A DNA stretch of 64,000 bases from an uncultured Pseudomonadota bacterium (GTDB taxonomy: Bacteria > Bdellovibrionota_B > Oligoflexia > Oligoflexales > CAIMVM01): the NCBI GenBank assembly GCA_903844895.1, contig CAIMVM010000330.1, forward strand, positions 9,255 through 73,254, read 5' to 3'. Below, piece by piece: positions 11,504 to 62,637 of the stretch. The notes below the pieces were generated by a model. That model saw nothing but the letters and a program-made list of their open reading frames with translations, ran no database searches and was not told the origin of the DNA. Within the stretch, counting starts at the first letter, position 1, and the number at the start of each line of letters is the position of its first letter. A program made the translations under genes and the position numbers.

Positions 11504-11801
11504 CGTGCATTCTTTCCTTCAAGACGTAGTTCTTTAATTTACTCAATTGACCGTAAGTGCCCAAAAATGCTGATTTCACGCATCTAAATCAAATTCCTTC
11601 AAATAATTTGGTTTAGAGGTCCTATGATCATACTAGAGAATGATGAACAGGGCTATACTTGAACCTCGGGTCTAACTTCATTCTGATCTATAGAAGTGTG
11701 TAGGAACCAGCTCCCTGCGCTATTATCAGCCTACATCGCAACCAGTCGATTCTGCTAATTGGTGGCGGGAAGGCGAAGATGCTGAGTTCAAGGAGGAAAT
11801 A

Positions 11802-32446: not shown

Positions 32447-32449
32447 CGT

Positions 32450-33136
32450 TCACCGTCCTTTTTGATTAAGTGCGGGAAGATCGATTTTGCGATCAAACAA
32501 CTTGCTTAAACTATGGTCGTGGCTGACAAAGACTAGGGTCGAACCGCAGCTAGAGGCAAGCTCCTCCAAAACATCGATGAATTTGTCTCTCATATCTGCA
32601 TCTAAGGCAGAAGTCGGTTCATCTGCGATGACGATTTCAGGTGAGCCTATCATAGCCCGTGCAGCAGCCACCCGCTGCTGTTGACCAACGCTTAGCTCAT
32701 ATACTTTCTTTTTAAAGTGGCCTTCAGGAATGTCTAATCGGGACAGAAACATACGCGCCTCATCAGTGCTATTTGCAAGAGAACGCTGTTTGGAATTAGA
32801 AAATTTAAGCGGGAGCAAAACATTTTCTAGCACATTGAGATAAGGAATAAGGTTAAATTGTTGGAAAATAAAACCAATATGATCGGCGCGAAACTGATCG
32901 CGCGCCCCACTGCTTAGTTTTTTCATGTCTTGGCCAAGAATCACCAGAGAGCCAGAATCAGGAGAAATAACTCCGCCGAAGAGTCCTAACAAGGTTGTCT
33001 TCCCTGATCCGCTAGGTCCGTAAATAAAGACTTTTTCTCCCTTATGGATGGTAAGTTCATTAATGTCTATAACCAAAGGGAGGTCGGGTTTCCAACGAAA
33101 CTTAAGCTCTGAAAGCCTAATCAACGGCTCAGTCAT
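32450..33136 (-). CDS. ABC transporter ATP-binding protein (ZrgB-like)
   Basis: Has Walker A GPSGSGKTT, the signature LSVGQQQRV and Walker B IVIADEPT. Confidence 0.9.
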   Translation of the reverse strand: MTEPLIRLSELKFRWKPDLPLVIDINELTIHKGEKVFIYGPSGSGKTTLLGLFGGVISPDSGSLVILGQDMKKLSSGARDQFRADHIGFIFQQFNLIPYLNVLENVLLPLKFSNSKQRSLANSTDEARMFLSRLDIPEGHFKKKVYELSVGQQQRVAAARAMIGSPEIVIADEPTSALDADMRDKFIDVLEELASSCGSTLVFVSHDHSLSKLFDRKIDLPALNQKGR

Positions 33137-44457: not shown

Positions 44458-46299
44458 ATGACCGACTCATTAGTTGCCTTAGTAGGGAACCCCAATTGTG
44501 GCAAGACAGCTCTTTTTAATACCTTAACTGGACTTCGGAATAAGGTTGCTAACTATCCAGGAGTCACTGTAGAAGTGGTCAAATCTGAACTATCCAAATC
44601 CTATGGCGGAAATTGTGTCCTTATTGACTTGCCAGGGACCTATTCCTTAAGTCCAGTTTCTGACGATGAAGCGATTACTAGTGATTTTTTAAGTGGTGCG
44701 CCTGGACAGCTAAAGCCACAGCTTATCATAAATGTTTTAGACGCCACACAATTGGAACTTGGGCTTGGATTGACTTTGGATCTGTTAAGGCTTGAGACAC
44801 CTGTTTTGGTTGCTTTGAACATGATGGATCTTGCAGAATCTAGCGGGGCTGTCATTAACGTAGATACGCTTGCTAGGGAGCTTGGTGTTCCCGTTGTGCC
44901 CATTAGTGCTACTAAAAAGTGGGGTTTAAATAAACTTTCCAATGCGATAGAGAGTTGCATTTCGACTCCCCAAACTTCAAAAGTTCTTGATTGGAATGAT
45001 CTTAGTTCCAAAGGTGATCTGGTTCATAAAATCGCTTTAAGCTGCACCGAAACCAAAGGCCGACGCTCCGAACTTACCGCGCGAGTTGACAAATACGTGC
45101 TTCACCCAGTGTTTGGCCCATTGATTCTTTTGGCAGCATTGGCTCTTATTTTTCAGGCCGTCTTTGCTTGGGCTGCTTTCCCCATGGATCTTATAGAAAG
45201 TTTTATTGGTAAGATAGCGGAGCTCTTGTCAACTGCGATGCCACAAGGCCTTTTAAGAGATTTGCTAGTTGACGGAATTATTGGGGGCGTTGGCAGTGTT
45301 ATTGTGTTCTTGCCCCAAATCGTAATTTTGTTTTCTTTCATTCTATTTTTAGAAGATTTTGGCTATATGGCTCGAGCATCTTATCTCATGGACCGTATTA
45401 TGGGGACCGTTGGGCTTTCTGGAAAAGCAGTCATTCCCTTAGTGTCAGGTTTAGCATGTGCCGTGCCCTCGATATTGGCTACCAGATCCATTCCTTCTAA
45501 AAGGGATCGTTTGCTCACTATGATGTTGGCCCCTTTGATGACCTGTTCAGCAAGGCTTCCAGTCTATGCGCTTTTAATTGCTGCTTTTATTCCAGCTAAT
45601 CAGTTTCTTGGAATGAATCGGCAAGGTGTCGTGATGTTGCTGCTCTATGTGGGCGGAGTTTTAGCGGTGCTAGGGGTAGGATTTGTTTTAAAGGCGACTG
45701 TATTGCCTGGAGAAGCACAACCTTTATTAATAGAGCTTCCTCGCTATAAATGGCCTTCGCTAAAACTACTAGGCATAGCGATCTTAGATAGGGCTCGTAT
45801 GTTCTTAAAGAGAGCAGGAACATTTATTCTTGCCGTTTCTATAGTGATGTGGGCTGTAACGACGTTTCCTAGAAAGCCAGAAGATAGGGCTGGAACTGAC
45901 ATTGAATATTCGATTGCTGGCAGGCTTGGAACTGTAATTGAACCCATACTGAAGCCTGTCGGGTTCAACTATGAAATTTCCGTTGCACTTATTCCTGGCT
46001 TTGCTGCACGGGAGGTCATGGTAAGTGCTTTGGGAACCGTCTATGCCATTGGGGGAGAGTCCGAAGAAAGTAAAGGGGCGAACTTGACTACTTTTGTTCA
46101 GGAAACGTGGGCCCCTTCGACGGCTTATGCACTTTTGGCCTGGTATATTTTTTCACCTCAATGCCTCGCCACTTTTGCTGTACTCGGGCGAGAGTCCAGG
46201 TCTTTGCGTAAAACTTCTGGCATTTTTGTCTTCTATCTTGCCCTTGCATGGTTGGCGGCATTTGCTGTGTTCACCATTTCTAGCTGGATTTTAAGTTGA
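44458..46299 (+). CDS. feoB: ferrous iron transporter B
   Basis: The N-terminal G-domain has GNPNCGKT and DLPGTYS and is followed by polytopic gate/permease regions. Confidence 0.95.
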   Translation: MTDSLVALVGNPNCGKTALFNTLTGLRNKVANYPGVTVEVVKSELSKSYGGNCVLIDLPGTYSLSPVSDDEAITSDFLSGAPGQLKPQLIINVLDATQLELGLGLTLDLLRLETPVLVALNMMDLAESSGAVINVDTLARELGVPVVPISATKKWGLNKLSNAIESCISTPQTSKVLDWNDLSSKGDLVHKIALSCTETKGRRSELTARVDKYVLHPVFGPLILLAALALIFQAVFAWAAFPMDLIESFIGKIAELLSTAMPQGLLRDLLVDGIIGGVGSVIVFLPQIVILFSFILFLEDFGYMARASYLMDRIMGTVGLSGKAVIPLVSGLACAVPSILATRSIPSKRDRLLTMMLAPLMTCSARLPVYALLIAAFIPANQFLGMNRQGVVMLLLYVGGVLAVLGVGFVLKATVLPGEAQPLLIELPRYKWPSLKLLGIAILDRARMFLKRAGTFILAVSIVMWAVTTFPRKPEDRAGTDIEYSIAGRLGTVIEPILKPVGFNYEISVALIPGFAAREVMVSALGTVYAIGGESEESKGANLTTFVQETWAPSTAYALLAWYIFSPQCLATFAVLGRESRSLRKTSGIFVFYLALAWLAAFAVFTISSWILS

Positions 46300-48860: not shown

Positions 48861-49703
48861 ATGATTGATAAGTTTCTATTGCCATTAAACCAATTGGGAT
48901 CAGCAATACGAAAGAATACTTCAAATGAAAGCATTATTGCACTTTGCGAGTCCGCGTCTACGCTGCCTTTTCGCACAGCAGCGTGGATTCGCGGCACTAC
49001 AGAAGTAGCCCGAGGCAGAGCTAACTATATTACAGATGTACGTCCATTTTTTTTAGATCCTATGGCTTCCATTTTTATGGGCAAAGACGCTTGTATTGAA
49101 CTCGCCCCCTGGGATCATGATTTCCTAGCGAAGGGGCAGTCAAAAGAACATGGGCTGCCAGTTATTCGTGGATTTCCAAATGCATCGGGTATTGGAATTG
49201 ACCCGCATTGGGATTACGTAAGTCCCAGTGTCACCCATCGAACCCGAATTTTTTTGCGAAGGGGGTCCAAGCTTCGAATAGGTCCAAATTCTCTCATATA
49301 CCGTGGTTGCTACCTCAGGCTGTGGGCTGGGACTAGTCTCGATATTGGCTGCAACGTCGTTGTCGCAAACGATACCATTATCAATTCCCGGAGCGGACTT
49401 ACAATTGGGCATGGTTCGATGATCGGTCAAAGAGTATTAATTATGGACTATGACGGTCACCCGGTCTTCAAGAAGGACGGAACGCTACTGGTGGAGCGTT
49501 ATGGCGGCGATGTACAAAAAATTTCCATCGGCAAGGGCGTTTGGATTGGAACTGGAGCCATGATTCTTAAAGGCGCATCCATAGGGGATGGAGCAATTGT
49601 CGGAGCTGGCAGCGTGGTTACCGGACACGTTCCGCCAAATTCCATAGTCGCGGGAAACCCTGCAAAGGTTGTAAGGGAGGACATTACATGGACCAAATAT
49701 TGA
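48861..49703 (+). CDS. hexapeptide-repeat (LbH) acetyltransferase
   Basis: The ATG at 48861 lies 4 nt after the transpeptidase stop. Left-handed beta-helix repeats are present: IGHGSMIGQRVLI, IGKGVWIGTGAMIL, IGDGAIVGAGSVV and AGNPAKV. Confidence 0.8.
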   Translation: MIDKFLLPLNQLGSAIRKNTSNESIIALCESASTLPFRTAAWIRGTTEVARGRANYITDVRPFFLDPMASIFMGKDACIELAPWDHDFLAKGQSKEHGLPVIRGFPNASGIGIDPHWDYVSPSVTHRTRIFLRRGSKLRIGPNSLIYRGCYLRLWAGTSLDIGCNVVVANDTIINSRSGLTIGHGSMIGQRVLIMDYDGHPVFKKDGTLLVERYGGDVQKISIGKGVWIGTGAMILKGASIGDGAIVGAGSVVTGHVPPNSIVAGNPAKVVREDITWTKY

Positions 49704-49892
49704 GAATCGCACTATTTTCGGCTATGTTATTTGCCATCGATATAAATCGCATCGAAGCCGCTGAGTCCAAAAATTGACTACGCATTCCTTTAGCATCCAC
49801 GCATATATCGCTTGATCCCAGTGGATTGCAGCGTCAATCGTGAAGTTTTTTTCCAAGAAGATTAACTTTAGGTTATAGAGCGAGATTATTGC

Positions 49893-51659
49893 ATGAATTC
49901 TAAGATACAATTTGTTCTGTCCTATTTCGTATTTTCGTGTGCCGCTCAGCTAATCTCAATCGGAAGCATCGTGGCAGCAGCTCTAGGCTACGATGGCGTA
50001 ATCAAGACGGCCATCATTGTTGGGGTTCAAGCTGTCGCTAACCTCGTCGCGCTCACTCTAGTGAATTCACGGGCGGCAACATCGACTCTTGTTCCAAGTC
50101 TCGGCTTTCCCTTTGTCGCAATATTCATTGCAATAGCGGCAGTTAATTCCTTTCTCTCTCTCGCGTGGTTCGCGTGTTGGTTTGCAAGTTTGGTGGTTGC
50201 GGCATTGCTAACAGCCAGTCTGACGGCGCATGTCCGCGGATTTTTTGCTGAAGAGTGGCAGTCACTCAATCGTTTCGTCCAAATGGCGCATGTAGCGTCT
50301 GCACTGGTTGCGTTTGCGGCAAGCCCGATCATGTATACGTATCTAGGTCTTTCATCTATATTCTATACGTCCGCTGGTATGATTGTCCTGTCATTCGTTA
50401 CCTTTCAGATTTCTTGTCGTACCTATCAAGAAAAGAAATCGATTTATGCTCCTTCCAATACTTCAAAGATTGGGGAAAGATCTGAATTTGATAGATCTAA
50501 TTATGGCTTTGCCATGAATTTGTTTTATTGGTGCACTCTCGGCTTGTTCACTGTGGTTGAGGTCAATATCCTCAAACATCGTTTTGATGCATCAGCATCT
50601 ACGATTTCGTCAATATTCGTGGTGGCTATTCTGACCTCCCTTTTGACATTGCGCGTCCTGCCACTTGACCGACTTATCAAGAATCCAGCCTATTTTATAT
50701 TTGTAGCCGCCGCAATGGCATGCGGTTTTAGCGTGCTATATTTCAATACAAAAAGTATATACATTGTCTATCTCTCAATCGTAGGAATGGGAATTGCAGA
50801 TGGCTGTTTTAAACTCTCAATCTCAATGATCTTGCAGCAAATTACTTCTGAAACAATTCGCCTCAAGGCATTTGTTAAGCAGCGCCTCGCACAATACTTA
50901 GGCACTTTGGTGGCCGTAATGCTTCTCGCTTTTTTCGATCAAGGAAATAGTCCCATGTTGCTGACTAGCATCGCAGTGGGGACCGCATTGATGATGATGG
51001 TAGTATCATCGCGGTACCGTGGGAGATTGACTCCTGCAATCATCATAGCCCCTATCGCATTTGTGCTTATGCCTGCAGTTGGTAAAGCTGACGTCTTTAT
51101 GGTTGGCCTACCTTCCACTCCGTCTCAGCTTGATCCGAGCAGAGTCACGGACGTATCAACTGCTGCGATCACCGGGCAGGTTTTTGATTCCCTTTATGAG
51201 TATACGGTGACTAATGACTTGGTTCCTCGCCTGGCAAAGAAGCATATCCTTTCGCCTGATGGGCTTCAAATTCGCATTACCTTAGATCAAACTCAGCGTT
51301 TTTCCGATGGTGCGAATTTGCGAGCGACTGACGTCGAAAAGTCGCTAATACGGACAATCTCGATTTTAAAAGAAGAGTCTCGATGGGCTTTTGGTAATAT
51401 CAAAGGTTTTGATGCCTTTATTACTGGCTCAACAAAATCTTGCGAAGGAATCCGAGCCTTGTCTGAGGACACTATAGAATTCAAGTTTGATCGCCCATTT
51501 CCGCTATTCTTAAAGATTCTAGCTACACCATATTTCGCGATTTCCAAGTCAAGTTCGACTAATCAACAGATTGGTACAGGCGAATTTATGATTAAATCTC
51601 GAGATTCGGGCGTGGTGATCTTGGCCCGGAAAAATAATCTTGAACCGAAAAAAAATTGA
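49893..51659 (+). CDS. MFS-like polytopic membrane domain fused to the N-terminal part of a family-5 solute-binding domain; reading frame ends inside an A8 tract
   Basis: There are about 12-13 hydrophobic spans in the first ~395 aa. These are followed by SBP_bac_5-type sequence (LDPSRVTDVSTAAITGQVFDSLYEY, RFSDGANLRATDV). The stop TGA at 51657 comes immediately after A8. Confidence 0.7.
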   Translation: MNSKIQFVLSYFVFSCAAQLISIGSIVAAALGYDGVIKTAIIVGVQAVANLVALTLVNSRAATSTLVPSLGFPFVAIFIAIAAVNSFLSLAWFACWFASLVVAALLTASLTAHVRGFFAEEWQSLNRFVQMAHVASALVAFAASPIMYTYLGLSSIFYTSAGMIVLSFVTFQISCRTYQEKKSIYAPSNTSKIGERSEFDRSNYGFAMNLFYWCTLGLFTVVEVNILKHRFDASASTISSIFVVAILTSLLTLRVLPLDRLIKNPAYFIFVAAAMACGFSVLYFNTKSIYIVYLSIVGMGIADGCFKLSISMILQQITSETIRLKAFVKQRLAQYLGTLVAVMLLAFFDQGNSPMLLTSIAVGTALMMMVVSSRYRGRLTPAIIIAPIAFVLMPAVGKADVFMVGLPSTPSQLDPSRVTDVSTAAITGQVFDSLYEYTVTNDLVPRLAKKHILSPDGLQIRITLDQTQRFSDGANLRATDVEKSLIRTISILKEESRWAFGNIKGFDAFITGSTKSCEGIRALSEDTIEFKFDRPFPLFLKILATPYFAISKSSSTNQQIGTGEFMIKSRDSGVVILARKNNLEPKKN

Positions 51660-52461
51660 ATTTCGATCGTATAATGACGCATCGAACCTCGTGGCATTTG
51701 ATTTTAGGATTATCGCGTCAGATGCAGAAATGGTGCTTTTCCCTCCTGAAAAATATGAGAGTCGAGAATTTAATCTCCTTCAAACGATTATTCTTCAGCT
51801 GAACGCTGGACGGAAAGAATTCGCGACTGGCGACGAGAGATGTCGTTTTAGCGCTGCCTTTGCTGAGGAGTCAGCTAAGCAATATAAATGGTCTAAGTTA
51901 TCAGAAGGCCTCCCGTTTTGGACCGACTTTTATGGAAAGACGAAGTTGCCAATAGCTTCGTCGAAAAAAGGTACCAAAGTCACCATCTTGTATGCGAATT
52001 CGGTGGGTCACTTCTCGACTGCGAACAATGATAAAATAAGGGACAAGCTTCTTGCTTCCGGCTATAATATTGAGTTTAAACGACTTGATAGCGCAGACCT
52101 GATCGCCCGCATGCGAGCGAAAAATTATACGGCCACCTTATGGGGTTTTTTGCCGGACTATATCGATCCAGATGCGCTCCTATCTCCTCTCGTGCGGTCA
52201 GGTCAACAGTACAACTGGTCGTCATTCAACAATAAGGCTGTTGACACCTTGTTGGAGCTTGGCGGTAGTGGACTTGATGGTATTGTTCGAAAGCAGATTT
52301 ATGACAAAGTTTTTGATGCCATGGGTAAAGATTGCAGAATATCATTTCTTGGGAGTGAACATGGTCGATATGTCGTCAGTCGTAAATGGGACTTTTCTGG
52401 GCTTAGTGGACTCGGCATGCTAACTGCAAGATTTCGTGATGTAAAAAGGAGAGCTCCTTGA
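51640..52461 (+). CDS. C-terminal part of the same family-5 solute-binding domain (+1 frame relative to the previous ORF)
   Basis: The sequence continues the SBP5 fold (TLWGFLPDYIDPDALLSPLV, SFNNKAVDTLL). It has no signal peptide of its own and no credible SD. Confidence 0.65.
   Translation: MNRKKIEFRSYNDASNLVAFDFRIIASDAEMVLFPPEKYESREFNLLQTIILQLNAGRKEFATGDERCRFSAAFAEESAKQYKWSKLSEGLPFWTDFYGKTKLPIASSKKGTKVTILYANSVGHFSTANNDKIRDKLLASGYNIEFKRLDSADLIARMRAKNYTATLWGFLPDYIDPDALLSPLVRSGQQYNWSSFNNKAVDTLLELGGSGLDGIVRKQIYDKVFDAMGKDCRISFLGSEHGRYVVSRKWDFSGLSGLGMLTARFRDVKRRAP
51648..51655. repeat. A8 homopolymer at the frameshift junction
   Basis: Eight A counted. Removing one A joins the two frames as ...NNLEPKKIEFRSYND... 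Confidence 0.95.
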
Positions 52462-53816
52462 AACCAGGATACGCAGCTATATTTGAGCAGCTCACAAGGT
52501 CTATGGAACATGAGACCAGTTTGATCGACCTTTTTTTGACCATGGTTCCGTCTGGATCGATTGCAGAAATCGGTGCGGGACATGGTCGCCTAGTGCCTTT
52601 TTTTTCTGATCGCGAAGTCTTCTATATTGAAAATGATGAAGATATGGTCGCCCGTTTGGCAGAAAGATTTCCGAATATTGTGAACACGATTGTGAAACGA
52701 AGCGCCTGGAATACAAAAATTCCGACTGGTAGTGTTGCTGCCGCTCATTTTTCTCCGAATGCAATTTGCGAAATGCAGCCAGTGTACTTTTGTTTAAGTG
52801 AGGCGAGTCGCATAGTGTCGGATGATGGTGTTATTTTGTTTACTGCGACAAACCCATTGACGAATATGCCGCATGCTTACACCAAATTCCGAGAAGTAGC
52901 TTGCGACGATTATGTAGAAACATCCCATGTGATTACCTATCCGACGCCAACTCATGGGCCAAACTGGTTCGAGACTAAGATTACTTTGAGAAATATGGAG
53001 GGGGAAACTACTGTTATTGTCAGCCAGGTTTTACCAAAACCAGAGTATTGGATTAAGATAATGTCTAACATGGGTTTCATTCTTGAACTTGCAACTGAAA
53101 ACCGTTCCCATCAGGCCGCTGATCTATCATCAAGCAAACTTATTTCCTATTTCTTCCGCAAGAAAGCAGATTCAGAAGCTTCGCAGGGACCTGTACAAAG
53201 AGTCTATGATCTAATCGCTCCCACCTACAATGAGTTTTCTAGAAATGCCAAGGAACAGTCTACTAATTGGTTTAAACAAAGCTTAAAAAGCGAGTCGCCT
53301 CCTAAATTTTCTCGCTTTCTTGATTTGGCTTGCGGTACAGGCAAAATTGGGGCCGTAATTCGTGAATACGACTCGGCCGCTAAAGTTTTTGGTCTCGACT
53401 TTAGCGCGAAGATGGTGACGATTGCTACTAACACGGGGAACTTTGCAGCAGTCGCCTGCGCTGACTTAAATGACGGGATCCCACTTGTGGAAGATGGATT
53501 TTTCGATTACATATCTGGCATTAGCTTCATGGAGTTCATCGCCGATCCAGTCAAAATTCTTAAGGATATTCGTCGACTCCTAGCACATCATGGAAAAGCG
53601 TGGATCACTTTTGAATTGCGAACTGAGACATCTCCGACTCCCGGGTTGCCAAATCCAAAAACTGGGCTCTCTTTCTATAGTTATACTACGGATGATGTTC
53701 GAGGGATGATTGCGCAGGCAGGGCTGAAGCTCAATGATTTGACTACGGGATTTGGGTATGAGGCGCAACTTGATAGTCGCCATGTAGAATATATATATTG
53801 TGAGGTAGCGAAGTAA
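52458..53816 (+). CDS. tandem double class-I SAM-dependent methyltransferase
   Basis: Two separate motif-I glycine loops are present: IAEIGAGHGRL near residue 35 and FLDLACGTGKIG near residue 290. Each is followed by an acidic beta-2 end (YIENDEDM and FGLDFSAKM). The TTG start overlaps the upstream TGA and lies behind an AGGAG. Confidence 0.8.
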   Translation: MKPGYAAIFEQLTRSMEHETSLIDLFLTMVPSGSIAEIGAGHGRLVPFFSDREVFYIENDEDMVARLAERFPNIVNTIVKRSAWNTKIPTGSVAAAHFSPNAICEMQPVYFCLSEASRIVSDDGVILFTATNPLTNMPHAYTKFREVACDDYVETSHVITYPTPTHGPNWFETKITLRNMEGETTVIVSQVLPKPEYWIKIMSNMGFILELATENRSHQAADLSSSKLISYFFRKKADSEASQGPVQRVYDLIAPTYNEFSRNAKEQSTNWFKQSLKSESPPKFSRFLDLACGTGKIGAVIREYDSAAKVFGLDFSAKMVTIATNTGNFAAVACADLNDGIPLVEDGFFDYISGISFMEFIADPVKILKDIRRLLAHHGKAWITFELRTETSPTPGLPNPKTGLSFYSYTTDDVRGMIAQAGLKLNDLTTGFGYEAQLDSRHVEYIYCEVAK

Positions 53817-53819
53817 AAT

Positions 53820-55760
53820 ATGCGTATTTCGAAACTGTTAATTCGACGTGTTGCCGCAATGTCAGGCCTCTATGTCTTTATGATTGGTCTAATGTTAGTT
53901 GTTTACGTAAATTCTTTATTTGCTAGAGAAATTAAAGAGGTTTCCGAAGCTGAAGTTAGGACAATTGAACACATAGTTGAGCAATACTATGGTGTGGGTG
54001 ACCTTGTTAATTTGCGAATTGGACTCAATGCATTTGCCAAGCGTGAGTCGATTGTTGAGGCGGAATTAACTAATGTCGATGGTCAAGTTATTTGGTCTGT
54101 ACATTCACAAGTATCTAGCGTCTCGCAAAACGTCGATTGGGATCTTTTTAGATATTTTTTTCTGGCAAATGGTGATTCTAATAAGTTAGTCCTACAGCGT
54201 TCGGTGATCAAGAACTGGAAAGATGAGGATATTTGTACTGTTGCCTGGAAACGGTCTCTGAATCATGAGTGGGCCGAACATCGACGACAGCTGGGTGTGT
54301 TTGCATTGGCGATTCTTGCATCATGGCTGCTCTATTTGGCGATCTTGCGACACGTAGCTACTAGGACATTGAGTCCAATGCATCAAATGAGTGAACGTGT
54401 TCGAGGGATTGGGAATTCAATTTCACTGACTCTTTTAGATGATCGTGGTGAGGACGAAATTCAGATGACTACAAGGTGGTTCCGGGAACTCGCAGAGGCC
54501 TGGGGGGAAGAGTCAAAAAGGGCTATTGAGGCGCAAAAGGCGGAAGCGATCGCCCGCACCACCCAAATGCTGGCCCATGACGTTCGCAAGCCTTTTTCTA
54601 TGCTTCGTGTGGGTCTGGCTATGCTAGGTAAAGCCAAGGACCCGGAAAGTGTCAAGAGGGTGATGTCTCGCGTCGTTCCGGAGATTGACCGGGCTATGAT
54701 TAGCGTCGACGGAATGCTTGCTGATGTGATGGAAGTGGGTTCTACATCAGGTATGTTGATTCAAGAACCAGTAAGTCCTGAGTCTCTGCTTGAATCGACA
54801 CTTGGAGATGTTGTTCGGATGTATCCTGAGGCGGATATTTCCCTGTCGTATGACCTTAATCATACACACATGGCTAATGTCCACATTCAGAAAATAAGCA
54901 GGGTATTCTCCAACATCGTTGGCAACTCTTTCCAAGCAATGAGATATAGGGGTTCCATGTGGTTTAGTACTTTTGAGTCAGATGGCATGATTAGGTTCTG
55001 CATAGGTAATGATGGCTCATGGATTCCCGAAGAAAATCTACCCAATCTCTTTGACGCTTTTTTTACTAGTGGCAAAAAAGGCGGCACCGGTTTGGGTCTT
55101 GCTATTGCACAAAAAGTGGTAACTGCTCACGGCGGCAAGATTTGGTGTGAATCAAGTAAGACTCCAGAGCGCCCTGAGGGCAAGGTGGAATTCTTCTTTA
55201 CAATGCCTGTTTCTAACCAAGTTAATTCAGCGACTGCAAATCTTCCGAAACACAGCTCTGACATCGCAAAACAATTGACCTTGTTAACTGAAACTAATTC
55301 CTCCTTAACAAGCATGGACAGGGGAGAGTTATCACTTGAAGAAGACATTGTGGCAGCGCATTTGTCTATGGGGTGCGCTTTGCGGGTTTTGATTGTGGAT
55401 GACGAATCTATCTACAGGAGTGCTTTGGTGTCACATATGACAAGAACCCCGGAGTTAAGTAAAGCGTTAGTACTTACGCAGGCTGATAGCTCTACTGGCG
55501 CACTGCAGGCAGTTGGAGACCAAGAATACGACCTCATTATTACAGATGTCGACATGGGCAAAATGTCGCTAAATGGCTTTGAACTCGTGACCGAATTGAG
55601 AGGCCGTGGGTCCAAAGCGCTAATTTGTGTTCACTCTAACCGCATCATTGCCGCAGACAATAAGACTGCGATCGAGGCTGGAGCTGACAGTTTTATACCA
55701 AAACCCATGGCTCACGCGCAGCTTCTGAGGCTACTTCTGCAAGCCGCTTCCGCGAGATAG
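53820..55760 (+). CDS. hybrid sensor histidine kinase / response regulator
   Basis: Two TM spans flank an extracytoplasmic domain of about 130 aa. It has H-box MLAHDVRKPF, N-box NIVGNSFQA, G-box GGTGLGLAIAQ and a C-terminal receiver (VLIVDDES, DLIITDVDMG, PKP). Confidence 0.9.
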   Translation: MRISKLLIRRVAAMSGLYVFMIGLMLVVYVNSLFAREIKEVSEAEVRTIEHIVEQYYGVGDLVNLRIGLNAFAKRESIVEAELTNVDGQVIWSVHSQVSSVSQNVDWDLFRYFFLANGDSNKLVLQRSVIKNWKDEDICTVAWKRSLNHEWAEHRRQLGVFALAILASWLLYLAILRHVATRTLSPMHQMSERVRGIGNSISLTLLDDRGEDEIQMTTRWFRELAEAWGEESKRAIEAQKAEAIARTTQMLAHDVRKPFSMLRVGLAMLGKAKDPESVKRVMSRVVPEIDRAMISVDGMLADVMEVGSTSGMLIQEPVSPESLLESTLGDVVRMYPEADISLSYDLNHTHMANVHIQKISRVFSNIVGNSFQAMRYRGSMWFSTFESDGMIRFCIGNDGSWIPEENLPNLFDAFFTSGKKGGTGLGLAIAQKVVTAHGGKIWCESSKTPERPEGKVEFFFTMPVSNQVNSATANLPKHSSDIAKQLTLLTETNSSLTSMDRGELSLEEDIVAAHLSMGCALRVLIVDDESIYRSALVSHMTRTPELSKALVLTQADSSTGALQAVGDQEYDLIITDVDMGKMSLNGFELVTELRGRGSKALICVHSNRIIAADNKTAIEAGADSFIPKPMAHAQLLRLLLQAASAR

Positions 55761-56994: not shown

Positions 56995-58176
56995 CTACAA
57001 TGCCACTGGTTCAGACAAATGTAGTTGATTTTTCAACTCGTCAAAAAGGCTTGAATCATTTGCTTCTTTATTGGCAGCAAGGATTACTTTTCTAATTTCA
57101 GACTCTCGAGTTTCAATGGCCTCGGTGAGCTTAAATTGTATGATGGCTCGTTCGAGATTGTGGTTAATGTGTTTTACTTTAAAGTAGGTGTTGTTTTCTA
57201 AGTAATCAGTAAAGAAGCGCATTCCCAGTTCAAAGGAAATCAGTCGTGCCGAGTCATAGAGGTATTCATAATCCTCTTCTGTAAAGAAAGAAGAGGCAAT
57301 CGAAAGATACCCTTTTAAGATTTGCTTGGACATAGTGACATCGAAATCAATAGAACTAAGATCTGTGCACTCCTCGCCCGCGGTATTGCAGGATGATCTC
57401 AGGCAATCCCCAATGTCATATTGAACGAGGCCGGGCTTAACAGTATCAAGATCAATTAAAGCTACTGCTTGCGCGGTGTCATTGTCTAACATAATATTGG
57501 CGGTTTTAGGGTCTCCATGAATGGGTCTGACTTTTAATGTCTTTTTTGCTGCGGCATCCTCCAAAACGGAACACCAAGAGGCTCTTTGGTCAATAAACTT
57601 GAAGCAGTAGTTTTCATCAAGTGTCGTGGTTGGCGACGATCTATTGAGTGCAGCATCCTGGAATTTTTGTAGGTATTTTGGGGTAATATGAAAGCCAGGC
57701 AAAGTATCATGCAGTTCTGTCGGTTTTAGGTTAGAGATCAATGACTGAAAGAGTCCAAGACCAAACCCAACTTCGAAACCATGGAGTGGATTTTTAATCT
57801 TTTGGTGTGCTGTAGCATTTTCTACATAGGTGATAGCCCGCCAAAAGCCAAGATCTTCATCGATCCAAAAGGCGTTCGGGTCTGAAGAGTCAGTTGGTTG
57901 AGTATACAGGACGCTGGGGACGACCCAACGTCTGGATTGGGGAAGAGGGGTTTTTTCTAATACTCTCTGGGTGTGATCTGCGATGCTGCACATATTTGCT
58001 ATGACTAGCTTTGGGTTTTTAAAGACTTTAGTATTGAGCCTTTGTAAAATAAATCGACCTTTATCCTTTGTCGAAACGACAAAGGTGTCATTTACATTTC
58101 CACCTGGATGCTCTTCAATGTTGATAACATTGTGCCATCCTGCAAACTTTTTAGCAGCTTCAATAGCGCGATTCAA
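56995..58176 (-). CDS. APH/choline-kinase-fold phosphotransferase (putative sugar or small-molecule kinase)
   Basis: Has catalytic loop IHGDPKTANIM and metal-binding LIDLDT. The size (393 aa) and N-terminal GGNVNDTF nucleotide loop are reminiscent of methylthioribose-kinase/hexosamine-kinase relatives. Confidence 0.75.
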   Translation of the reverse strand: MNRAIEAAKKFAGWHNVINIEEHPGGNVNDTFVVSTKDKGRFILQRLNTKVFKNPKLVIANMCSIADHTQRVLEKTPLPQSRRWVVPSVLYTQPTDSSDPNAFWIDEDLGFWRAITYVENATAHQKIKNPLHGFEVGFGLGLFQSLISNLKPTELHDTLPGFHITPKYLQKFQDAALNRSSPTTTLDENYCFKFIDQRASWCSVLEDAAAKKTLKVRPIHGDPKTANIMLDNDTAQAVALIDLDTVKPGLVQYDIGDCLRSSCNTAGEECTDLSSIDFDVTMSKQILKGYLSIASSFFTEEDYEYLYDSARLISFELGMRFFTDYLENNTYFKVKHINHNLERAIIQFKLTEAIETRESEIRKVILAANKEANDSSLFDELKNQLHLSEPVAL

Positions 58177-58188
58177 ATGAGACTCCTG

Positions 58189-58932
58189 TTACAATTTGAG
58201 GCGGTCAAATAGAAAACTAGGGATATGCCTAATGATAAACATCACAGTCCGCCAATAAAATGGCGTATAGATGACTTTTCGATGGCGACTCATGCCCTTG
58301 GCAATTTCTTGTCCCACAACTTCTGGCTTTGCCAACAAGGGACTCTGGATATTAAGGGATTGGGTCATAGGAGTCGCCACCATGCCAGGCTTGATGAGTG
58401 TTAGGGATACCCCCTGATGGTAGAGATAGTTTCGCAGTCCTTCACAAAACACAGAAAGTCCGCCTTTAGCGCTTCCATATACAAAATTACTCATGCGCCC
58501 GCGGTCGCCGGCTACGGAGGAGATGACGCCAATATTTCCCTCTTTTTGCGTTACAAATACTCGCGAAAAAAGAATTAGAAGAGAGACTTGAGAGAGATAG
58601 TTAGCATGTATCTCTGACATAGCCATTTCGACGTTTCCTGCTACTTGGCTTTGGTCAAGTAGAGTGCCGTGGGCTACTAAGAGATGGTCAACTTTATCGA
58701 AGCATTTGGAGGCTTCCTCAATAATTCTGGGGTGTGCACTTTGATCGAGGAGGTCTTGTTTGTGAAGTACGACGCGAGTGGCTCCAAATGAAATCAAATC
58801 TTCTTTAACTCGAGACAGCTTCAAGTCGTCTCTAGCGACTAAAAAAAAGTTGGCATTTTCTTTAGCCCAATAGCGGCAAGCGTGTAGGGCTATGGCTGAC
58901 GTGGCTCCGATGACGATTATATTTTTAGCCAT
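58189..58932 (-). CDS. SDR, DprE2-like (decaprenylphospho-2-keto-ribose reductase family)
   Basis: Has a VIGATSAIA Rossmann motif and a YGSAK catalytic YxxxK. It overlaps the DprE1-like gene by 8 nt. Confidence 0.75.
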   Translation of the reverse strand: MAKNIIVIGATSAIALHACRYWAKENANFFLVARDDLKLSRVKEDLISFGATRVVLHKQDLLDQSAHPRIIEEASKCFDKVDHLLVAHGTLLDQSQVAGNVEMAMSEIHANYLSQVSLLILFSRVFVTQKEGNIGVISSVAGDRGRMSNFVYGSAKGGLSVFCEGLRNYLYHQGVSLTLIKPGMVATPMTQSLNIQSPLLAKPEVVGQEIAKGMSRHRKVIYTPFYWRTVMFIIRHIPSFLFDRLKL

Positions 58933-60235
58933 TCTTTACGACTCTCCTGATAAAACTAGATGAAATATTAGGATCCATCCATTGTTTGAAATCTTCAAAT
59001 TCTGGGTAATAGTTTTTAAACTGACGAGGGTCCATTTTGCTATCTTTAGCGGGATAAAGTTTTCCACCAGCGTCGTCGACAATTCGGTCTAATATCTGAA
59101 ATAACTTATCAGTCTTTGGACCCATATTTGCAAAATCAAGCGCCAAAGTATAGCCAGGTTCAGGAAAGGACAGGATTCCAGGGGAGGGAACATCCCCAAA
59201 CTTCTTTAGAACTGCTAGAAATGAACTCATTCCGGAGCGAGCGATGCGGCTGAAGATCTCTCTAAGGGCATTTTTCTCGCTGGAGGGTATGACAAATTGA
59301 TATTGGAAAAAACCACGTTTTCCGTAGATTTTATTCCAATCGTGAACCTTGTCCAACGGGTAGAAAAAGGGGTCATAATGCACTGTGCTCACCATCGATT
59401 TGGAAATCTGTTTGTGATAGAAAAGTTGATTGAATACTTGAATCGTTGGCTTGGAAAGCGCAGCCTCAGGGAAGTTAAATGGGACCATGAGTTTAGGCTT
59501 CACAGACTTATGAGGAAGCGATGGATCCTTAGAATGGTTGCCTCTCATAAAGATGCCACGGCCTAAATTTTTTCCTGTAGAAACGCAGTCTACCCAAGCG
59601 ACGGTATACTCATGAGATAAGTCGGATTCATCAGAGATTTGAAAAAATTCATCAAGACCACCGAACTTTATATTTTCTGTATCAAACCAAGGCATTTCCT
59701 TAATGAGCTTTAGTTCAATCTCCAGCATGACTCCTGTTAGACCCAAGCCAGCAACGGTTGCCTTAAATAAAGGCATTTCTGGTGTTAAATCATGAATGGT
59801 GCCATCGGTTCTTAAAAGCTTAATTGCGGTAATGTGATTTCCAATAGTTCCTCTGACATGATGATTCTTGCCATGCACATCATTGGCTACGGCGCCCCCC
59901 AAAGTTACATACTTTGTGCCAGGGGAAACTGGCAGAAACCAGCCGTGCGGAATGGCAAGATCCAAGATATCTCCCAGAGTCACGCCCGCTTCACATCTCA
60001 TGTGGCCGGTTTCACGGTTAAAGGACACGAATCGGTTCAAACTTTTCATGTCCATCAAGGTTTGATCTTGGTTTAAGCAAGAATCGCCGTAGCTTCGCCC
60101 TAGTCCATAGGGCAAAAGGATTTGATTTCTATTATTTTTTAACGATTCTACCACATCTTGTATCCAAGCTGGTTGGATGACGGAATGTGAGTAATGAAAG
60201 AAACGGCCCCATGATTGATAAGTATTAGTTTTCAT
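58925..60235 (-). CDS. FAD-dependent oxidase, DprE1-like (decaprenylphosphoryl-beta-D-ribose 2'-oxidase family)
   Basis: GLGRSYGD, PGTKYVTLGGAVANDVHGKNHH..GTIGNH and ATVAGLGLTG closely parallel the M. tuberculosis DprE1 blocks as I recall them. Confidence 0.85.
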   Translation of the reverse strand: MKTNTYQSWGRFFHYSHSVIQPAWIQDVVESLKNNRNQILLPYGLGRSYGDSCLNQDQTLMDMKSLNRFVSFNRETGHMRCEAGVTLGDILDLAIPHGWFLPVSPGTKYVTLGGAVANDVHGKNHHVRGTIGNHITAIKLLRTDGTIHDLTPEMPLFKATVAGLGLTGVMLEIELKLIKEMPWFDTENIKFGGLDEFFQISDESDLSHEYTVAWVDCVSTGKNLGRGIFMRGNHSKDPSLPHKSVKPKLMVPFNFPEAALSKPTIQVFNQLFYHKQISKSMVSTVHYDPFFYPLDKVHDWNKIYGKRGFFQYQFVIPSSEKNALREIFSRIARSGMSSFLAVLKKFGDVPSPGILSFPEPGYTLALDFANMGPKTDKLFQILDRIVDDAGGKLYPAKDSKMDPRQFKNYYPEFEDFKQWMDPNISSSFIRRVVKNG

Positions 60236-60242
60236 CCATGCC

Positions 60243-61673
60243 TTAAAGTAGTTTAGAAGCTAATAGAGAAAGGGCAATAACGAATAAGAGAAAATAGCTC
60301 GATTTGTCTTTGACGGCAAAAAGGATAGGATCTGAATTCATTTGCCCTCGGTCTGTGAGTAGCCAAACTCTTGATATCCAGTAAAGCAAAACAATAGCTA
60401 TGGCTAAAAGATATCGTGGTGATTGGTAAAGTTGGACAATCACAGGTTGATTTACATACATGGCAAAAATAACTACCGAAGCCATTCCTGATCCCACTCC
60501 CAAGGCGTTAACCATGGCGAGATCGTCCGTAAAGTAACCTCTACCACCCGCTTTCTTCTTATTTAAGGAAAGCATAAGTTTGAGTTCCGTCGAGCGTTTT
60601 GCAAATGCCAAACTCAAAAAGAAGAACATGGAAAAAGCCATGAGCCAGAAAGTGAGGCGTGTTTCTGTTACAACACCCCCAGAAAGAATCCTCCAACTAT
60701 ATAGCCCTGCTAAAGTAAAGGCATCTAGTATGGGAATTTTTTTCAACTTAAACGAATAGATGGTCGTTAGAATATAGTAACCGAGGAGCGCTAACAACAA
60801 ACGCTCATTAGCCCAAGCAGCGATGCCCATTCCTAATACAAATAGAAGGCCCGCCATGACAAGCCCTTGAGGAAGAGAAACACTCCCTCTGGCAAGCGGT
60901 CGGTTTCTTTTTTCGGGATGCTGACGATCAGAATCTAGATCCACGATATCATTTAGAAGATAAACACTGGAGGCGATTACCGAAAATGCAATAAATCCTA
61001 AAAAGGCGTTCCGCCACAATGCGGCTTCGTCCAGTCGATGGGCGAGTATCAGGGGAAGAAAGATCAAAAGATTTTTTGCCCATTGATGGATGCGAAGAGC
61101 TTTGTTCCAAGCGGTCCATCGCGATTGCTCAGGCTCAATCCATTTTACAACCGGCACAATTTTCTCGGCTTGTTTTCGCAGGGAGTTAGGTCCAACAACA
61201 ATGGCACCTGCGGATTCGCGCCAGACGTCAAGATCAACACTAGCATTTCCTGCGTAGAAGAACGGCCGGCAGTCGGCAGGAATAGCTTGTGATTTTGCCT
61301 TTCCAGCTAAATTCAAGGATTCTTCATTTGTGCTTAATACCCGTTCAAAGAAGCCGAGATGTTCTGAAATGCTCAAAGCAATAGACTTATGAGCTGCAGT
61401 AGCTAAGATCAGTTTTCGCCCTTTAGCCCGTTCGCGACGCAAATAATGTAACAATTCATTGTTATAAGGTAGCTGAGCAGGGTCTAGAGAGATATGCTTC
61501 GCAACTTCTATTTTAAAGCCAGCCTTTCCTTTAAACAGCCAAAAAGGAATTTGAAAGATGAGAGAAGGCTGGCTTTTTATGAGTTTAAAAAGACTTTCAA
61601 TGAGAGTGTCTGTGCTAACTAGAGTACCGTCAAGATCGACTACTATATAGGAAACATTTTCATTCAGAGTCAC
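60243..61673 (-). CDS. HAD phosphatase domain fused to UbiA-family polyprenyl-phosphate phosphoribosyltransferase (Rv3806c-like)
   Basis: The N-terminus has the HAD motif I VVDLDGTLV. The C-terminal polytopic domain has NDIVDLDSDRQHPEKRNRPLARG, the NDxxDxxxD motif in the DPPR-synthase context. Confidence 0.85.
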   Translation of the reverse strand: MTLNENVSYIVVDLDGTLVSTDTLIESLFKLIKSQPSLIFQIPFWLFKGKAGFKIEVAKHISLDPAQLPYNNELLHYLRRERAKGRKLILATAAHKSIALSISEHLGFFERVLSTNEESLNLAGKAKSQAIPADCRPFFYAGNASVDLDVWRESAGAIVVGPNSLRKQAEKIVPVVKWIEPEQSRWTAWNKALRIHQWAKNLLIFLPLILAHRLDEAALWRNAFLGFIAFSVIASSVYLLNDIVDLDSDRQHPEKRNRPLARGSVSLPQGLVMAGLLFVLGMGIAAWANERLLLALLGYYILTTIYSFKLKKIPILDAFTLAGLYSWRILSGGVVTETRLTFWLMAFSMFFFLSLAFAKRSTELKLMLSLNKKKAGGRGYFTDDLAMVNALGVGSGMASVVIFAMYVNQPVIVQLYQSPRYLLAIAIVLLYWISRVWLLTDRGQMNSDPILFAVKDKSSYFLLFVIALSLLASKLL

Positions 61674-61752
61674 TACACTAAAATCCTTTGAGTGGTTGAT
61701 CCCCTGAATGGTAACCTAGAGTATAGCTTGCCTCAAGGATAAAAGACTCTGT

Positions 61753-62637
61753 TTAGTGACTCGAAGAAGGCATATTTACGGAAACGACATCAAGATAGGT
61801 TTGCCAGCCGTCGTCTCTTGTAATGAAGGGACTTACAAATTTGAGTGTAGGGACCCAACTTTTGCCCAATTTTAGTCCTATGGCAAACTCATGACGAAAT
61901 GCCCGAAGACCGTAACTCTCGTAGAGTTCGCTGGTGAATTGCCTGATTTGCCTAAAATCGAAAGTAACTCCCTTGTTTCTTCCAAAGGGAATCTTTAATG
62001 AAGTTTGCGCATAGCCTTCTTTCATAAAGGGGTTGCTGTGTGCACCGAGAATTAGCTGGTATTCTGAGCCCCATAGGTTCCCCAGGCGCCCTGTTTGAAA
62101 ACCAGACGACAAGGTATTACCTTCCACCGGTGAGTCATAATAAAGGTTGGAAGAAATGTTGTTCATGGCGCGGTGAAACGAGCTCTGAATGGATTTGGCA
62201 CCATGATTCCCAATATTGCCAAAACCAGCCTCGAGCTGGCCAAAGAAGATTCCAAAGTCTGTATCAAAAGATTTTCTATAGGCCGAGTCGATGGAAATCC
62301 AGTCAGAAAACACCCCGTCTCTACTCGCGGTATCTGTCTTCTCAAAATTAGTTCTAGTATCGGGGGTAATAAATCGCCAGTTTCCGGTAATTTCAAGGCT
62401 GTCCCTAGAATCTATTTCCCAAAGCCCTCCTAAATAGAACATATTCGTAAGATGTCGATCTGTGCCGCCAAAGAAGTCATTGTAAAAGGGATGAAAAAAG
62501 TAACCTTCATCTGTTTGATGAAGAGTTCCCGTTTCTCCTATGTGGCCATGCTTTGCGGCTCTTTCAAAGGTGTTTCCTCGTGAAAGAGAGCTCACTACAA
62601 GTTGGCTACTAAGGTAAAATAACATCAAGCGGCGCAT
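61753..62637 (-). CDS. LpxR-family (DUF2219) lipid A 3'-O-deacylase-like outer membrane protein
   Basis: Has a signal peptide and a beta-rich sequence. YNDFFGGTDRHLTNMF resembles the LpxR ENDxFxGxDRxYTNG motif. The family call is from memory only. Confidence 0.55.
   Translation of the reverse strand: MRRLMLFYLSSQLVVSSLSRGNTFERAAKHGHIGETGTLHQTDEGYFFHPFYNDFFGGTDRHLTNMFYLGGLWEIDSRDSLEITGNWRFITPDTRTNFEKTDTASRDGVFSDWISIDSAYRKSFDTDFGIFFGQLEAGFGNIGNHGAKSIQSSFHRAMNNISSNLYYDSPVEGNTLSSGFQTGRLGNLWGSEYQLILGAHSNPFMKEGYAQTSLKIPFGRNKGVTFDFRQIRQFTSELYESYGLRAFRHEFAIGLKLGKSWVPTLKFVSPFITRDDGWQTYLDVVSVNMPSSSH

Follow-up and report, generated by a model that had tools for sequence, protein, structure and literature searches.

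Until the TAXI-GltS system was proposed, TRAP (tripartite ATP-independent periplasmic) and TTT (tripartite tricarboxylate) transporters were the only secondary transporters known to work with a soluble substrate-binding protein (SBP) (PMC12344293, 2025). The TAXI-GltS proposal was built on the co-localisation of the genes, their translational coupling and the existence of fused homologues, and it has been considered that an elevator mechanism may be a requirement for SBP dependence, an idea for whose testing further classes are wanted (PMC12344293). Here we describe a gene cassette that may represent a new kind of binding-protein-dependent transporter. It lies at positions 49893-55760 of a 64,000-nt stretch of DNA from an uncultured Pseudomonadota bacterium (GenBank assembly GCA_903844895.1, contig CAIMVM010000330.1, positions 9,255 to 73,254; this whole stretch is called the window below). 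On the forward strand, it encodes a membrane domain of the major facilitator superfamily (MFS) type fused to a family-5 SBP (SBP5) domain, followed by a tandem methyltransferase and a hybrid histidine kinase. As in TRAP (DctPQM, SiaPQM), TTT (TctABC) and TAXI-GltS, the SBP is coupled, and in some genomes fused, to a putative secondary transporter, and the kinds of genomic evidence used for TAXI-GltS are found here as well, with the two parts fused in about 30 representatives and encoded by adjacent genes in two split loci (L010 and L013). Unlike in those systems, the SBP belongs to family 5 (cluster C) rather than to DctP, TAXI or TctC, the membrane part has an MFS fold in place of the elevator-type DctQM, TctAB or GltS, and the linkage includes a methyltransferase in every case and a kinase in most.

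The SBP domain shares its fold and family with the binding proteins of the Opp, Dpp, Mpp and Nik ATP-binding cassette (ABC) importers (target-normalised TM-score, TMt, up to 0.79). Those importers use a pair of BPD_transp_1 permeases together with ATPases, whereas an Opp/Dpp-type ABC permease or ATPase is found beside the cassette neither in the window nor in the other loci examined, and the SBP is instead fused or adjacent to the MFS protein; the absence remarked upon in the first-pass annotation of this DNA thus holds in every locus. The only ABC genes seen were an unrelated FtsX/MacB-type pair (window 31190-33136) and a distant, divergent set in L026. The tethering of an extracytoplasmic domain to a translocator in fixed stoichiometry is known from GlnPQ and OpuA, with their fused substrate-binding domains, and a tethered accessory domain is likewise found in NanZ-NanM and SiaF-NanM, where MFS or SSS carriers are combined with periplasmic enzymes (PMC8461474). 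In the cassette, by comparison, an SBP is tethered to an MFS carrier, and a conserved signal-peptidase-like site hints that the tether may be cut.

Each domain of the cassette comes from a well-known superfamily, and no description of an MFS-SBP5 association was found in the literature, so that the combination is, as far as we have found, undescribed. We rate the cassette as a variant of binding-protein-dependent secondary transport and not as a member of an existing family, because the Opp/Dpp ABC parts are absent and TRAP or TTT would require another membrane component and another SBP family. The reading preferred here, to which we assign a probability of about 0.45, is that the MFS protein imports an amine-bearing, peptide-like ligand in dependence on the SBP, that import is coupled to methylation in the cytoplasm, and that the kinase monitors the process.

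Gene grouping and the A-run frameshift

An exhaustive phmmer (HMMER) search of 1.84 billion cluster representatives with the fusion returned 34 representatives at E<1e-30. Full-length fusions, 790-906 aa long and 21-40% identical, make up about 30 of them, and membrane proteins (350-407 aa) and SBPs (about 500 aa) that stand alone came up in the same search. All relatives stem from metagenomes. The contigs of nine family members were inspected for their gene neighbourhood, and in all nine of these further distinct loci a methyltransferase adjoins the MFS/SBP5 genes. Five (L002, L003, L005, L007 and L026) carry the fusion, a tandem methyltransferase (449-463 aa) and the kinase, in that order, in overlapping or abutting genes and at 22-46% identity. 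L008 and L025 carry the fusion and the methyltransferase, after which the contig ends. In L010, the fusion is split into an MFS protein of 369 aa and an SBP of 498 aa, followed by the tandem methyltransferase and the kinase, and in L013 an MFS protein of 390 aa and an SBP of 513 aa are accompanied by a single-domain methyltransferase with no kinase. The kinase is thus present in six of the seven loci that are long enough to show it (seven of eight with the present species counted).

The identities of the four parts drop in step from locus to locus (35, 44, 46 and 40% in L002; 26, 33, 25 and 23% in L005), as predicted by inheritance as a unit, and the flanking genes are unrelated from one locus to the next. 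The gene grouping is beyond chance: this is a conserved, co-inherited cassette with MFS, SBP5 and methyltransferase as its core and the kinase usually attached, so the gene co-occurrence on which the first-pass annotation depended is borne out. The absence of a kinase in L013 suggests that transport and methylation are the core and that the kinase is a regulatory addition. Other searches reached less far: homologue searches by word index, whether started from the fusion, the methyltransferase or a methyltransferase alignment, returned essentially the same species only, a genome scan gave the metagenome-assembled genome (MAG) ELA155 and an unrelated SBP5, a metagenome scan gave three generic SBP5 loci with no MFS, methyltransferase or kinase gene, and tblastn against plasmids gave generic methyltransferases and no fused homologue.

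In the window, the cassette is read as four tightly packed, co-directional open reading frames (ORFs): ORF 1 (49893-51659, 588 aa), ORF 2 (51640-52461, 273 aa), the methyltransferase (52458-53816, 452 aa, TTG start) and the kinase (53820-55760, 646 aa). The methyltransferase TTG at 52458 overlaps the TGA at 52459-52461 and is preceded by an AGGAG at 52447-52451, and the kinase ATG lies 3 nt beyond the methyltransferase TAA. These positions and junctions, with stop and start codons that overlap or nearly touch, agree with those given at first pass. ORFs 1 and 2 are one gene (49893-52461), broken by a single extra A in a run of eight (A8, 51648-51655). When one A is deleted from the run, an 855-aa protein results. 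It shares 99% identity with MEI8026325.1, an intact protein that NCBI names 'ABC transporter substrate-binding protein', from the MAG 'Pseudomonadota bacterium ELA155', whose contig has A7 at the run and the same neighbours as the window. The frame correction implied in the first-pass annotation is thereby matched by an existing allele.

The A8 allele also occurs in five other contigs (L016/17, L018, L019, L020 and L021) from different lake metagenome samples and assemblies, several of which start just 100-250 nt upstream of the run, and among the contigs compared A7 is found in ELA155 only. (In L001/L014, the corresponding site is at 11750-11772.) The shift required at A8 is +1, equal to one A fewer in the mRNA, and the SBP as encoded in the sequenced strain is truncated after about 190 residues of the domain. 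Between the two alleles, the ratio of nonsynonymous to synonymous differences (pN/pS) stays at 0.13-0.19 along the fusion gene, also downstream of the frameshift, although the counts are small, with just five substitutions in that downstream part. The break could thus be recent, a real polymorphism in the population, or tolerated through slippage on the A run; the tract itself could be such a polymorphism, could be phase-variable, or could be rescued through slippage, either transcriptional or +1. The system in the sequenced strain is either inactive or dependent on slippage at the run. A converse case is found in feoB, which is split into two genes (429 and 221 aa) in ELA155 (L001 4549-6388) and is one 613-aa ORF at window 44458-46299; frameshifts, real or assembly-derived, occur in both assemblies.

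A frameshifted gene whose relatives are all metagenomic raises the possibility that nothing functional is present, and that the locus is an artefact of assembly or annotation, or a pseudogene in decay beside unrelated genes. This is contradicted by the conservation data and is very unlikely: an intact allele exists, the full-length relatives come from independent samples, the methyltransferase is linked in every other distinct locus and the full gene order is kept in five of them. The low pN/pS, with its small counts, extends past the frameshift, and the intact fusion is modelled with high confidence (below).

Several features around the cassette may be recorded here. Rfam families and riboswitches were not found in the window or in seven related loci, and a scan for consensus promoters and terminators was uninformative. 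Short ORFs of 7-10 codons (MAKLVILEA, MSSSPFTDF, MSIGSSQGGR and MSDIFTGG) stand behind a strong Shine-Dalgarno sequence in the operon leaders, 71-87 nt upstream of the fusion start in L003, L005, L007 and L008 and also in L002 and L010, that is, in six of eight loci, where shuffled sequences give 1.9 +/- 1.2; the window has none. They may be leader peptides or attenuators, and in L005 the short ORF is followed by a hairpin and a T-run. In the branch of the relative P0033 (L026 1-7971; L027 95-976), a TPMT-type methyltransferase and a 46-aa ORF precede the cassette, which there adjoins a divergently transcribed polyketide gene set (KS-AT-KR, FabA, NMO) resembling polyunsaturated fatty acid (PUFA) synthases. 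On the minus strand of the window, at 56995-62637, genes for an APH-type kinase, a short-chain dehydrogenase, a FAD_binding_4 oxidase and a HAD-UbiA fusion resemble the DprE2/DprE1/decaprenyl-phosphate phosphoribosyltransferase set for lipid-linked arabinose, in what is apparently a Gram-negative genome.

Fold and topology of the fusion protein

The membrane domain (49893-51026, residues 1-378) is assigned to the MFS by a combination of profile and structural evidence. Pfam MFS_1 matches ORF 1 over residues 10-322 at 26 bits (E 5e-6; 25-26 bits on the protein, under the Pfam gathering score of 33.4 bits), and it matches 22 of 29 relatives at E<1e-3, the best at E 2.4e-16. An AlphaFold model of the intact fusion, made from a family alignment of 57 sequences, has a mean predicted local distance difference test score (pLDDT) of 90.9 (36 from the single sequence) and comprises 12 confident helices in residues 2-376, a short helix 13 (381-391), a low-confidence linker and a bilobed alpha/beta domain. 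Hydropathy agrees with 12 helices and a 13th preceding the SBP domain, in line with the 12-13 hydrophobic spans counted at first pass. With Foldseek, a viral structure library (BFVD) was used since SBPs are scarce there, the PDB listing having given SBP matches only, and the top matches were giant-virus MFS transporters (TMt 0.60-0.64, E 3e-6 to 1e-4, probability 1.00). The membrane domain as modelled thus has 12 transmembrane (TM) helices and an MFS fold (by definition a fold of two six-helix bundles), and the transporter fold supposed in the first-pass annotation is recovered. No internal repeat was detectable when its N-terminal and C-terminal halves were compared with hhalign.

The second part of the protein (51090-52461, residues 400-855, interrupted by the frameshift) is a family-5 SBP domain of cluster C (Opp/Dpp/Mpp type), both by profile and by its bilobed fold. 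SBP_bac_5 matches ORF 1 over residues 443-581 (E 1e-16), ORF 2 corresponds to the C-terminal end of the same profile, and the intact protein scores 82.7 bits, above the gathering score, as part of a family in which all 29 relatives match. Sequence matches to PDB entries span residues 401-817 and comprise peptide, murein-peptide, dipeptide and related binders.

Between the two parts lies helix 13 (51027-51089, residues 379-399), which resembles an internal signal peptide, with the basic segment RYRGR, a hydrophobic core and the sequence AVGKA|DV. When the sequence is set against the helices of the AlphaFold model, the basic residues of the membrane domain fall in the N-terminus, in loops 2-3, 4-5, 6-7, 8-9 and 10-11, and in the RYRGR after helix 12. 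This pattern implies a 12-helix core with both its N-terminus and its C-terminus in the cytoplasm, from which helix 13 would then lead the chain out. Among the 29 fused members, 24 have this arrangement of 12+1 helices and 5 have 11 (P0025, P0031, P0042, P0046 and P0048; locus L025). In these, helices 12 and 13 have both been lost and the SBP domain follows directly. An odd number of helices precedes the SBP domain in both arrangements, which by prediction makes the domain extracytoplasmic in each, and free SBP homologues carry Sec signal peptides. The periplasmic orientation on which the first-pass annotation relied is therefore the predicted one, and the existence of two solutions to one topological problem argues that selection maintains a periplasmic SBP.

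Of the 24 members with helix 13, 23 keep a small-x-small site at its end, and the stricter form [AVS]xA is found in 16 of 24, compared with 24 of 141 where other outward-running helices end. With its basic n-region, hydrophobic core and small-x-small site, helix 13 thus looks like a retained signal peptide. The fusion may be cut there by signal peptidase to give a 13-helix membrane protein and a free SBP; with such cleavage, fused and split forms would amount to the same thing. A small ORF between the acetyltransferase gene and the fusion (window 49688-49777, 29 aa; L001 9797-9952, 51 aa, the window copy being shortened by a stop codon) reads as a signal peptide followed by 'LRIPLAATQISFDPSGV', which resembles the start of the SBP family; where it aligns best, it does so at the expected position. 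As a candidate relic of the SBP signal peptide and first strand, however, it scores no higher than shuffled controls do.

Ligand, methyltransferase and kinase

Asp755 of the SBP domain, in the stretch WGFLPDYIDPD, is invariant in the fusions and is the only residue besides the start Met that is kept in at least 90% of the wider set of 57 sequences. We take the Asp of this W..DY.DP motif to be the counterpart of Asp419 in OppA (CADYNEP) and Asp408 in DppA (GDNGDP), which anchor the alpha-amino group of the ligand. In the membrane domain, the periplasmic end of helix 7 bears the conserved sequence EVPxLxxRF with an invariant Glu223, and Arg323 is near-invariant. Together, these three residues suggest an amine-bearing ligand that is peptide-like or derived from an amino acid.

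A narrower proposal, which builds on the muropeptide-type ligands suggested at first pass, is that of a muropeptide recycling unit, in which an AmpG-like permease and an MppA-like binding domain are tied to the L,D-transpeptidase (YkuD) and hexapeptide acetyltransferase genes that lie directly upstream in this species. MppA is indeed among the top structural matches, and Asp755 fits a ligand with a free amino group. In Foldseek searches of the PDB, however, the SBP part resembles MppA, OppA, AgaA, AapF, NikA and glutathione binders about equally (TMt 0.75-0.79), and the membrane domain matches neither an AmpG model nor any other in NCBIfam. The transpeptidase/acetyltransferase pair accompanies the cassette in this species only (window, L001 and L016) and is absent beside it in L002, L003, L005, L007, L008, L010, L013, L025 and L026, which leaves the idea with no contextual support, and muropeptide recycling has no known need for methylation. 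The muropeptide reading is rejected on these grounds as very improbable.

The methyltransferase consists of two domains, both of which belong to the class I S-adenosylmethionine (SAM) methyltransferases by their glycine-rich motif I and an acidic residue after strand 2. In the N-terminal domain (52458-53162, residues 1-235; motif I EIGAGHGR), G39, A40, G41, G43 and E58 are invariant in the family alignment, as are D289, L290, C292, G293, G295 and D314 in the C-terminal domain (53190-53816, residues 245-452; motif I LDLACGTG). The C-terminal half matches Methyltransf_11, Methyltransf_25 and Methyltransf_12 above their cut-offs (Methyltransf_11 at E 1e-17), and its best PDB profile matches are juvenile-hormone-acid O-methyltransferase, UbiE-like proteins, ToxA and phosphoethanolamine N-methyltransferase (PEAMT). 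The N-terminal half has NCBIfam matches on residues 5-90, among them a weak one to a methyltransferase model for daptides, a class of ribosomally synthesised and post-translationally modified peptides (RiPPs), and a PDB profile match over residues 5-235 to 3d2l, an uncharacterised SAM methyltransferase. Two class I SAM domains in a chain of about 450-490 aa are also found in the PEAMTs of plants and nematodes (5wp4, 4krh), in which tandem SAM domains carry out successive methylations of one substrate. The C-terminal domains of the two align. The similarity is low and generic, and, in contrast to the PEAMTs, it is the N-terminal domain to which the single-domain variant of L013 corresponds.

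The kinase (53820-55760) consists of a TM helix, a periplasmic domain of about 125 aa, a second TM helix, a linker, an H-box (H253), a HATPase_c domain (residues 358-464) and a receiver (523-637). HATPase_c (68.7 bits) and Response_reg (61.9 bits) are matched in Pfam, with matches in NCBIfam as well. HisKA gave no Pfam match at E<0.01 in the window kinase, and no HPt (histidine phosphotransfer) domain was found. The H-box reads AHDVRKP, and its H253-D-V-R-K-P is invariant in the orthologues. In five other loci, the orthologous kinases can be aligned along the sensor domain and the H-box and at the Asp, Ser and Lys positions of the receiver; the hybrid layout described at first pass is well founded. 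The sensor domain (53925-54299, residues about 36-160; conserved Y57, G60, L62, L69 and W92) has no match in Pfam or the PDB and is, by these comparisons, family-specific. No other receiver or kinase domain was detectable by phmmer in the 64-kb window. Between the window and L001, which are otherwise near-identical strains, the kinase gene (L001 13927-15867) shows a synonymous divergence (pS) of 0.117 and 94.6% protein identity, whereas the pS of the fusion and methyltransferase genes is 0.02-0.03. The kinase gene may thus have undergone recombination or have had a history different from theirs.

Relays from a binding protein to a membrane kinase are known from LuxP-LuxQ, TorT-TorS, ChvE-VirA and the SBP5-type chitin-binding protein with ChiS, a transporter acts as co-sensor in UhpC-UhpB, and PhcB and PhcS of Ralstonia form a pair of signal synthase and sensor. 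The cassette is like the first five in that a binding protein, a transporter-like protein or both are encoded with a membrane kinase, and its kinase is a hybrid with a receiver, as are ChiS, TorS and LuxQ. It differs in that its sensor domain matches no known family, in that no HPt protein or response regulator is linked to it, and in that contact between SBP and kinase is so far only proposed here.

These relays bring forward the possibility of a purely sensory complex, in which the MFS protein would be a non-transporting partner or co-sensor of the kinase in the manner of UhpC-UhpB, the SBP the ligand module, the kinase the transmitter and the methyltransferase a tuning enzyme that modifies, for example, a protein or the ligand. 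Such a non-transporting role is made plausible by the five 11-helix members, which lack helix 12. The lack of the classical MFS motif A points the same way, as does a family-specific sensor domain that co-evolves with the other parts, and distant SBP5 relatives fused to Ser/Thr kinases and chemoreceptor signalling domains indicate that SBP5 domains serve as sensors. Set against this are L013, which has MFS, SBP and methyltransferase genes without any kinase, the resemblance of the methyltransferases to small-molecule enzymes rather than to CheR-type protein methyltransferases, and the invariant intramembrane polar and charged residues of the membrane domain (E223, R323), which are kept as they would be in a carrier. 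Overall, a complex that only senses is rather improbable. The distant relatives (P0052, P0058, P0072 and similar) are proteins of 1500-1950 aa with two SBP5 domains each, the fusion partner being a Ser/Thr protein kinase together with AAA_16, AAA_16 by itself, or a chemoreceptor (MCPsignal) domain.

The pairing of methyltransferase and kinase admits another explanation, namely a self-made signal circuit in which a methylated small molecule is produced by the methyltransferase, leaves the cell through the MFS protein and is then bound again by the SBP, which presents it to the kinase. Such a circuit would unite a synthase and sensor pair of the PhcB/PhcS kind with a relay from binding protein to kinase of the kind known for LuxP/LuxQ or for the chitin-binding protein and ChiS. 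The two genes are adjacent and translationally coupled in every long-enough locus except L013, the cassette is self-contained with unrelated flanks, like many signalling modules, and the C-terminal methyltransferase domain is structurally closest to carboxyl O-methyltransferases whose products are volatile or hormone-like esters. Helix 5 of the membrane domain bears a conserved G/S-P with an invariant P145, which is reminiscent of the antiporter 'motif C' of MFS exporters; it is also compatible with the exchange of precursor for product. In the Ralstonia phcBSRQ operon, a SAM methyltransferase gene likewise stands immediately upstream of a sensor kinase gene, and PhcB makes a methyl-ester signal that is sensed by PhcS (PMC6989110, PMC8578825). 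This likeness is one of gene arrangement only, as the Phc system has neither MFS nor SBP and the cassette has no regulators of the PhcR or PhcQ type. A signal circuit is harder to reconcile with an exporter fused or coupled 1:1 to the receptor of its own product, which would be odd, with L013, where MFS, SBP and methyltransferase are kept without a kinase and sensing is not an indispensable part, and with the fact that SBPs are otherwise tied to the import or sensing of external compounds. We consider it unlikely, though still a serious competitor.

Import, methylation and sensing as one proposed system

The reading that we prefer to both of these is import, and in the mechanism that we infer, the MFS and SBP parts would be made as one polypeptide or, in the split forms, from two coupled genes. 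Helix 13 would act as an internal signal peptide that delivers the SBP to the periplasm, where the chain is probably cut by signal peptidase. The SBP would then capture a peptide-like ligand or one derived from an amino acid, in either case with a free amino group, and hand it over to the MFS domain for uptake driven by the proton motive force. In the cytoplasm, the tandem methyltransferase would methylate the imported compound, and the periplasmic domain of the kinase would read the ligand or the ligand-loaded SBP, with a relay through the receiver to a partner encoded elsewhere. The first-pass annotation had pictured a unit of ligand capture, transport and phosphorelay with the methyltransferase as a modifying enzyme. 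Its idea of a functional unit is supported by the conserved gene set, and the activities assigned to the parts make up a reasonable mechanism that may well apply.

A number of observations weigh against import. The SBP-using secondary transporters known so far are all of the elevator type and not of the rocker-switch type (PMC12344293). The MFS domain is highly divergent: the MFS_1 score of the window protein lies under the Pfam gathering score, and the membrane-domain profile found no match among PDB sequences or in NCBIfam. In members of the superfamily, motif A (G-x-L-a-D-r-x-G-r-k) occupies the loop between helices 2 and 3; by our reading of the alignment it is absent from that loop, which in this protein is the unconserved VNSRAATSTL. 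The G/S-P of helix 5 would fit export or exchange better than simple uptake, and 11 helices are unusual for a working MFS carrier, so the membrane domain could have a non-transport role. In addition, the SBP gene is frameshifted in the window, L013 lacks the kinase, and the cassette has neither a response regulator nor an HPt protein linked to it.

A fuller claim can be put forward more tentatively still, namely that the cassette is the first binding-protein-dependent transporter built on an MFS, that is, rocker-switch, carrier, that its SBP5 is released by cleavage at an internal signal peptide, and that methyltransferase and kinase complete a four-function cassette; we hold this to be possible. 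If it is true, SBP dependence is not restricted to elevator-type secondary transporters. A recurrent SBP5-MFS pair that is found fused, split and translationally coupled, and that has the rocker-switch fold, is a candidate class which makes the question of an elevator requirement directly testable. The fusion may also be a bacterial membrane polyprotein processed at an internal signal peptide. Ultimately, the cassette offers a new kinase sensor domain and an obligate partnership of transporter and methyltransferase in uncultured freshwater bacteria.

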